In this document: positions 55,201 through 56,299 of the stretch, piece by piece
Position numbering within the stretch: position 1 is the stretch's first letter
Layout: each line of letters starts with the position of its first letter
Source: Escherichia coli
GTDB lineage: Bacteria; Pseudomonadota; Gammaproteobacteria; Enterobacterales; Enterobacteriaceae
Length of the DNA: 64,000 bases
Reading direction: 5' to 3' (one strand)
Assembly: GCF_044647545.1 (NCBI RefSeq)
Contig: NZ_CP172818.1
The notes under the pieces: model-generated
What the model saw: the letters and a program-made list of their open reading frames with translations, nothing else
What the model was told of the DNA's origin: nothing
The model's database searches: none
Translations under genes and position numbers: made by a program

Positions 55201-56299
55201 TCATAACCCTGCTTTCAAACTTGCTTCGATAAATTGATCCAGGCTGCCGTCCAGCACGGCCTGCGTGTTGCGGGTTTCTACCCCGGTACGCAGATCTTTA
55301 ATGCGGGAGTCATCAAGGACATAAGAACGAATCTGGCTGCCCCAGCCGATGTCAGATTTGTTATCTTCCATCGCCTGTTTCTCAGCATTTTTCTTCTGCA
55401 TCTCCAGTTCATAAAGCTTCGCTTTCATCTGCTTCATGGCCTGGTCTTTGTTCTTGTGCTGGGAACGGTCGTTCTGGCACTGGGTCACGATCCCAGTTGG
55501 GATGTGAGTAATACGCACCGCAGATTCGGTACGGTTAACGTGCTGACCGCCCGCGCCGGACGCGCGATAAACGTCGATGCGCAGATCCGCCGGATTGATT
55601 TCGATATCGATATCGTCATCAACTTCCGGGTAAACAAACGCGGAGCTGAACGACGTGTGGCGACGACCGCCGGAATCAAACGGGCTCTTACGCACCAGGC
55701 GGTGAACGCCGGTTTCTGTACGCAGCCAGCCGTAAGCGTAATCGCCGGAGATTTTGATCGTCACGGATTTAATACCCGCCACTTCACCTTCCGACTCTTC
55801 GATGATTTCAGTTTTGAAACCACGCGATTCTGCCCAGCGCAGATACATACGCTCAAGCATGCTCGCCCAGTCCTGTGCTTCCGTGCCGCCAGACCCCGCC
55901 TGAATATCGAGGTAGCAGTCGGCGCTGTCATATTCGCCAGAGAACATACGGCGGAACTCAAGCTGCGCCAGTTTTTCTTCCAGGGCGTCGAGTTCAGCAA
56001 CGGCTTCGTTAAAGGTTTCTTCGTCGTCAGCTTCTACAGCCAGTTCCAGCAGACCAGAAACATCTTCCAGCCCCTGTTTCATTTGGTCGAGGGTGTCGAC
56101 AACGGCTTCGAGGGAGGAACGCTCTTTACCCAGCGCCTGTGCGCGTTCGGGTTCGTTCCAGACATCCGGCTGTTCCAGCTCGGCGTTTACTTCTTCCAGA
56201 CGCTCTTTCTTGGCGTCATAGTCAAAGATACCCCCTAAGAACGTCGGAGCGTTCCGTGAGGTCCTGAATGCGATTATTTACCGGATTAATTTCAAACAT
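55201..56299 (-). CDS. prfB: Peptide chain release factor 2, expressed via programmed +1 ribosomal frameshift
   Basis: Frame 0 from ATG 56299 encodes [25 protein letters not shown] then UGA; frame +1 continues [18 protein letters not shown]... to the stop at 55201, with the SPF and GGQ motifs present (365 aa total). Confidence 0.93.
56221..56236 (-). other. prfB +1 frameshift recoding site (internal SD AGGGGG + CUU UGA C)
   Basis: Reverse complement of 56221-56236 reads AGGGGGTATCTTTGAC, the classic RF2 autoregulatory frameshift cassette. Confidence 0.9.

Follow-up and report, generated by a model that had tools for sequence, protein, structure and literature searches.

The prfB Programmed +1 Frameshift Cassette, Complete and Conserved, in a 64-kb Segment of Escherichia coli DNA

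The interruption of the prfB reading frame in the 64,000-nt stretch of Escherichia coli DNA analyzed here (the window) is almost certainly the site of programmed +1 ribosomal frameshifting in E. coli prfB with which RF2 adjusts its own level. All sequence elements of the site are present in their exact geometry, they occur together once in the window, and they are conserved. The feature is already known, and its biology is not new: bacterial programmed +1 frameshifting has E. coli prfB as its founding example, and the K-12 site is the original RECODE example. Recognizing the site means that an essential gene is not miscalled as truncated or as a pseudogene. It also provides an internal positive control that frame-break detection works in the window, a use that an earlier reading of the sequence without database searches (the sequence-only reading) had proposed and with which we agree, and it indicates local sequence accuracy at a G5 homopolymer that is not the same in all public assemblies.

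Frame Structure and Sequence Elements of the Cassette

Read directly on the minus strand from 56299, the sequence runs ATG TTT GAA ... GTT CTT AGG GGG TAT CTT TGA C TAT GAC. The following features make up the cassette and the gene; the evidence used for each is given where it goes beyond the bare position.

56225-56299, minus strand: prfB ORF0, ATG and 24 sense codons, encoding RF2 residues 1-25 (translation; alignment to solved E. coli RF2)
56299-56297, minus strand: prfB start codon ATG (direct reading)
56231-56236, minus strand: internal Shine-Dalgarno (SD)-like hexamer AGGGGG, codons 22-23 AGG GGG, Arg-Gly (direct reading and pattern search)
56228-56230, minus strand: 3-nt spacer, the E-site codon UAU, codon 24, Tyr24 (direct reading)
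56224-56227, minus strand: slippery CUU_U, the P-site codon 25 CUU (Leu25) at 56227-56225 and U at 56224
56222-56224, minus strand: in-frame RF2-specific stop UGA, frame 0 codon 26 (translation)
56221, minus strand: context base C, completing the weak-termination tetranucleotide UGAC and ending the +1 codon GAC
55201-56223, minus strand: prfB ORF1 in the +1 frame, from GAC (Asp26) to Leu365 and TGA at 55203-55201

The AGGGGG-UAU-CUU-UGA-C context thus spans 56236-56221 on the minus strand, with the shift codon CUU exactly 3 nt downstream of the AGGGGG hexamer and the slippery CTTTGA, directly before and overlapping the stop, at 56227-56222. The sequence-only reading had described 25 codons followed by an in-frame UGA within CUU UGA C, which direct reading and translation bear out to the base; the internal SD AGGGGG that it placed at 3-nt spacing is the hexamer at 56236-56231, separated by the spacer UAU at 56230-56228, and the interval that it assigned to the feature, 56221-56299, comprises exactly ORF0, the UGA and the context C. 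A search for the cassette AGGGGGNNNCTTTGAC with one mismatch permitted returned one site in the 64-kb window, against a chance expectation of 0.03, given as the mean over dinucleotide-preserving shuffles of the window.

Beyond the UGA, frame 0 runs into more stops at 56218, 56128 and many later positions, and these confirm the earlier statement that no continuous single-frame ORF leads from 56299 to 55201. The +1 frame has no stop from 56277 until the TGA at 55203-55201 and spans the frame junction; over the 65 codons from 56277 to 56083 it contains no ATG, GTG or TTG, its first start being at 56082. The ORF list for prfB consists of a 25-aa ORF (56222-56299) and a 293-aa ORF from an internal ATG (55201-56082) and nothing else, as was implied by the remark that the ORF track held a truncated prfB only.

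The Joined Product Is RF2

Joining the frames at CUU/U (56299-56225, continued from GAC at 56223) gives a 365-aa protein that is RF2, and there is no other route to the RF2 N-terminal domain. It aligns over residues 1-365 to the E. coli RF2 chains 1gqe and 1ml5 in the PDB (E about 1e-240), uninterrupted over the GYL-DYD junction, and differs by one residue from 1gqe and by one from 1ml5, the two best PDB sequences. On the NCBIfam model TIGR00020 (prfB), it scores 525.9 bits (cut-off 370), and the RF1 profile models run against it all stayed below their own cut-offs. Both the SPF and the GGQ motif, read directly from the joined product, lie within ORF1, and the exact joined protein is held in public collections as E. 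coli RF2 (RF2_ECO27). Translating frame 0 and the +1 frame and comparing them with RF2, as had been suggested from the sequence, therefore yields an alignment over the full 365 residues; the call of the gene as prfB stands on this alignment, on the TIGR00020 score, and on the joined CDS annotated by PGAP.

Residue 246 of the encoded RF2 is Ala (GCG, 55563-55561, minus strand), the canonical form, Thr246 (ACG) being specific to K-12. Ala246 has been described as the canonical and more active RF2, and Thr246 as unique to K-12 strains (PMC5373646). The strain analyzed here encodes the commonest E. coli RF2 protein sequence, which carries Ala246.

Annotation and Genomic Context

Several complete E. 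coli chromosomes match positions 55150-56450 of the window with 100% identity, and this 1.3-kb stretch was found in 5,425 of 5,426 genomes. The genome of FDAARGOS_497 is identical to the window base for base from 32606 to 62359, and because of this identity its annotation transfers directly to the window. RefSeq/PGAP there presents prfB (56299-55201) as a two-piece join labeled "programmed frameshift" (WP_001701073.1), and the neighbors, in window coordinates, are recJ at 58123-56390 and lysS at 55191-53674. The annotation of the K-12 derivative RP437 and that of one more divergent isolate agree with this. One of the 5,425 recJ-prfB-lysS matches is on a plasmid-labeled record, probably a mislabeled replicon. 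Across 17825-63999, the only differences between the window and FDAARGOS_497 are two deletions in the window, of AA at 32606 and of C at 62359, both intergenic by the FDAARGOS_497 gene coordinates.

The two features flanking prfB in the window are the following.

56300-56389, minus strand: recJ-prfB intergenic leader, with a 13-bp hairpin and a prfB initiation region with essentially no SD
53674-55191, minus strand: lysS, the gene downstream of prfB, starting 9 nt after the prfB stop

The leader hairpin (56370-56340, minus strand) has 13 bp with one bulge, lies 20 nt after the recJ stop, and has a fold z of -2.81; no U-run follows directly on its 3' side. It might act as a weak terminator of recJ, as an attenuator, or as a stabilizer. 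In the prfB initiation region (56300-56319, UCAAUAAAAGAAAUCAGACC-AUG), the best anti-SD duplex within the 20 nt upstream of the start reaches -1.3 kcal/mol: prfB has next to no SD at its start but a strong internal one 63 nt further in. A promoter and terminator scan of 55100-56600 revealed no consensus prfB promoter in the 90-nt intergenic region; its sole promoter-like match lies inside the coding region at 55931-55903, and the counts were at shuffle level.

Conservation of the Site in E. coli and across Bacteria

The 64-nt core of the site (56262-56199) is found exactly in 5,405 of 5,425 complete E. coli genomes (99.6%), in two synonymous haplotypes: the window type (TAT) in 997 genomes and the K-12 type (TAC) in 4,408. 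A frame break that is unchanged in 99.6% of the genomes of the species is not a lesion. The TAT/TAC dimorphism concerns position 56218, the third base of the Tyr27 codon, which on the minus strand follows the context C by 3 nt; the TAT allele makes an out-of-frame AUG (56219-56217), 11 nt after the internal SD, which opens a 10-codon ORF to UAA at 56189-56187.

For the cross-species comparison, a collection of species-representative genomes was scanned with the plain-DNA pattern AGGGGGTNNCTTTGAC, which yielded at least 120 loci; for each locus the upstream frame-0 codons and the +1 frame were joined, and the product was compared with the RF2 of the window. An RF2 context was found for 105 of 120 among the matches listed to this relaxed pattern, and as the sample was chosen by motif, this proportion demonstrates specificity for prfB and is not a measure of unbiased conservation. 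A first tally, likewise among the matches listed, counted 102 with an RF2 homologue running in the +1 frame from the exact GAC, many of them aligning 1-340 to 1-340. The other loci among the matches listed were mostly unrelated chance matches; one of them is visibly prfB and is ended by the edge of the locus. The prfB matches listed come from the Gamma-, Beta- and Alphaproteobacteria, the Bacillota, Bacteroidota, Chlorobiota, Omnitrophota, and others, and ORF0 is mostly 20-27 codons long among them. The spacer codons of the 105 prfB matches listed were TAT (63), TCT (23), TAC (11), and TTT (5), in a sample biased to T-initial spacer codons by the fixed first spacer base T of AGGGGGTNNCTTTGAC.

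For conservation free of this selection we rely on a survey of 12,753 genomes by Prince et al., who found a premature stop in 64%, with a consensus approaching AGGGGG, CTTT 3 nt downstream, TGA, and a conserved C; the C after TGA is highly conserved (PMC12421855). The cassette in the window is an exact match to this domain-wide consensus.

Pairing with the 16S rRNA, Codon Usage, and RNA Structure

The codon AGG accounts for 1 of the 25 Arg codons of prfB, namely codon 22 within the SD, and is found at none of the 38 Arg codons of lysS and none of the 43 of recJ. That this rare codon is used in prfB solely at the SD points to selection on the nucleotides. AGGGGG with its flanks is predicted to form a duplex of -12.6 kcal/mol with the 3' tail of the 16S rRNA, an energy to be read descriptively and not as a sign of uniqueness, because 10-mers of similar energy occur in other genes, where they pair with the GAUCACC part of the tail. 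Within prfB, the strongest anti-SD-binding site is among the 10-mers covering the AGGGGG hexamer. For all duplex energies we assumed the established sequence of the 16S 3' tail, the rRNA gene being outside the window.

In 140 nt folded around the site, RNA structure did not exceed that of shuffled controls (z = -0.38). On this value we rejected a stimulator based on structure, in keeping with the known mechanism. Rfam, applied to the whole window at gathering thresholds, recovered a tRNA-Gly only and no family for the frameshift site, and a permissive Rfam scan of 56100-56420 gave chance-level matches only (E above 2).

A Model for RF2-Responsive Frameshifting at the Site

On the established mechanism, ribosomes would initiate at the AUG at 56299, translate 25 codons, and then pause, the P site holding peptidyl-tRNA-Leu on CUU and the A site UGA. 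This UGA is read by RF2 only, and the C that follows it makes it a poor terminator. With RF2 plentiful, termination would occur and the 25-residue peptide would be released; with RF2 scarce, the pause would be longer. AGGGGG would meanwhile pair with the 16S anti-SD merely 3 nt behind the P-site codon, a spacing expected to strain the mRNA and to help eject the weakly bound E-site tRNA-Tyr (UAU). The tRNA-Leu would then slip from CUU to UUU, GAC would be read next, and 340 further codons would complete full-length RF2.

ORF0 of E. coli prfB has 25 residues ending in UGA and shifts at an efficiency of about 50%, the pairing of the SD 3 nt upstream with the anti-SD acts as a compressed spring, and the C after UGA weakens termination (all PMC10798248). 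UAU belongs to the E-site codons whose tRNA is released fastest and with which frameshifting is highest (PMC2377451). Autoregulation was established experimentally on the same 16-nt E. coli sequence by Craigen and Caskey 1986, Weiss et al. 1987/88, and Curran and Yarus 1988 (summarized in PMC10798248). It is from such established experiments on the identical sequence that we infer both the occurrence of the shift in this strain, at the roughly 50% found in E. coli, and its response to RF2. The earlier interpretation as an autoregulatory recoding site of RF2 is supported at the level of sequence, each element that it named lying at its stated position.

Alternative Explanations of the Frame Break

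It could be argued that the break is a frameshift mutation or a sequencing or assembly error, prfB being then a pseudogene or misread by one base. One extra base does indeed separate the two prfB frames, and records with one G fewer in the G5 run have a continuous prfB ORF. The identical break is, however, shared by 5,405 of 5,425 complete E. coli genomes and recurs in the prfB genes of distant phyla; it coincides with the full known stimulatory set, for which the chance expectation is 0.03 per window; and PGAP classes it as programmed. We therefore give an error or mutation virtually no credence. A frameshifted pseudogene was rejected on the same grounds, the break being neither sporadic nor devoid of recoding signals: it is conserved and carries the full signal set.

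The two ORFs might also be translated separately, with AGGGGG serving as an ordinary re-initiation SD for the second. This explanation can draw on the strong predicted binding of AGGGGG to the anti-SD (-12.6 kcal/mol, used descriptively as above) and, in the TAT haplotype of the window, on the AUG at 56219-56217, which lies 11 nt downstream of AGGGGG. That AUG is, however, in the third frame, where it opens only the 10-codon ORF to UAA at 56189-56187, and it is missing from the 4,408 genomes of the TAC haplotype; the +1 frame itself offers no ATG, GTG or TTG between 56277 and 56083. Moreover, the deposited sequences of solved RF2 have residues 1-25, from frame 0, directly joined to residues 26-72, from the +1 frame, and Craigen et al. 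1985 reported an E. coli RF2 that starts with Met1 and spans the GYL-DYD junction (cited in PMC10798248). Separate translation is hardly conceivable in view of these observations. Equally hard to credit is a version in which the frameshift site is genuine, the SD-like hexamer reflects mere coding constraint for Arg-Gly, and CUUUGAC alone drives the shift. It finds a precedent in Flavobacterium johnsoniae, in which prfB frameshifting normally takes place without SD:anti-SD pairing, and in the loss of the SD from several clades (PMC10798248). E. coli ribosomes, however, have a free anti-SD, and frameshifting in E. coli is all but lost when bases of the SD are substituted (Weiss et al. 1987/88 and Curran and Yarus 1988, summarized in PMC10798248); the use of AGG in prfB at the SD only, and its absence from lysS and recJ, also speak against a pure coding constraint.

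Comparison with Known Recoding Systems

The prfB site of E. coli K-12 shares with the window the 16-nt cassette AGGGGGUAUCUUUGAC, the 25-codon ORF0, the start codon, and the leader, with identity over 56305-56219, as well as the gene order recJ-prfB-lysS. The two differ at 56218, where the codon following GAC is UAC in K-12 and UAU in the window (synonymous Tyr). There are 16 differences in the rest of prfB, of which 15 are at third codon positions by coordinate and one (55563) changes Thr246 in K-12 to Ala246 in the window. The original work on the K-12 prfB frameshift is reportedly that of Craigen et al. 1985 and Craigen and Caskey 1986.

The sites in prfB of other bacteria have been surveyed in 12,753 genomes (PMC12421855) and in 2,686 genomes (PMC10798248). 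Their consensus has AGGGGG, the 3-nt spacer, CTTT, TGA, and C in common with the window (PMC12421855), whereas the spacer codon and the length of ORF0 vary, some clades are without an SD, and a few have TTTTTGA. In-frame prfB alleles, natural in the Actinomycetota and Mycoplasmatota and otherwise engineered or evolved as single-base deletions, represent the same gene and encode essentially the same protein, but they have no internal UGA and need no frameshift, so that the autoregulation is missing. With both the G5 run and the CUUUGA intact, the window falls outside this class.

More distant parallels exist in principle only. Like prfB, the +1 shift of eukaryotic antizyme employs stop-codon recoding as a feedback sensor, and the -1 shift of E. 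coli dnaX employs an internal SD:anti-SD duplex as a stimulator. The antizyme, dnaX, and IS3-family shifts are not homologous to that of prfB and differ in direction, spacing, slippery sequence, and effector.

In-Frame G4 Alleles in Other E. coli Records

Alignment to the window (56305-56190) revealed two complete E. coli genomes, O145 RM8995-C1 and BH100 substr. MG2014, that have AGGGG in place of AGGGGG. With this allele, prfB is one uninterrupted reading frame (...LRGIFDYD...; WP_105166511.1) whose annotation mentions no programmed frameshift; the two genomes differ in their TAC/TAT haplotype background. There are 364 contigs on which WP_105166511.1 is recorded, and records of Escherichia fergusonii and Shigella contain similar "RGIF" proteins. 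Deletions of a G in the SD run, or of a T, arose in prfB as suppressors in experimental evolution of Pseudomonas fluorescens (PMC13245932); as these are the same class of mutation, the G4 alleles could be real and not homopolymer errors. They may represent either a real loss of autoregulation or an assembly error at the homopolymer.

Possible Coupling to lysS

The SD of lysS (GAGGA) overlaps the TGA of prfB (55192-55206, minus strand), and this arrangement suggests that lysS is translationally coupled to ribosomes finishing the frameshifted prfB ORF. The scan of 55100-56600 detected neither a promoter-like site immediately before lysS nor a terminator-like site anywhere in prfB; about 710 nt separate the promoter-like match at 55931-55903 from the lysS start downstream of it. 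Termination at codon 26 would leave about 1 kb of untranslated mRNA before lysS, and such untranslated prfB mRNA could lessen the translational coupling or invite Rho-dependent polarity. It is conceivable, though we consider it improbable, that the recoding decision in prfB also sets the output of lysS downstream; if true, the supply of lysyl-tRNA synthetase would be linked to termination capacity. A weaker variant of this idea is that the TAT/TAC dimorphism at 56218, together with the out-of-frame AUG in TAT strains, might tune the efficiency of the shift between E. coli lineages.

Other Features of the Window

A tRNA-Gly gene (anticodon CCC, glyU; 19195-19268, minus strand) lies at the edge of an ETT2 island remnant; Rfam and ARAGORN find no other RNA gene in the window. 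The urate/proton symporter gene uacT (51395-52833, plus strand) appears as two overlapping ORFs (51266-52489 and 52393-52833), with a break near 52485, and the identical sequence is called "frameshifted" (pseudogene) by PGAP.

An IS2 element of 1,331 bp occupies 16494-17824, encoding TnpA (17778-17368) and TnpB (17410-16505) on the minus strand; its A6G -1 slippery heptamer at 17416-17410 is a second recoding site in the window, unrelated to prfB. In FDAARGOS_497, the closest relative, the place of the element is taken by about 16.9 kb of ETT2 type III secretion genes. The IS2 is without a 5-bp target duplication (TTTAT vs. AACTT) and truncates the GH15/ygeQ gene, and its junction with OrgA is of the K-12 type, with 98.3% identity, and occurs in 362 genomes.
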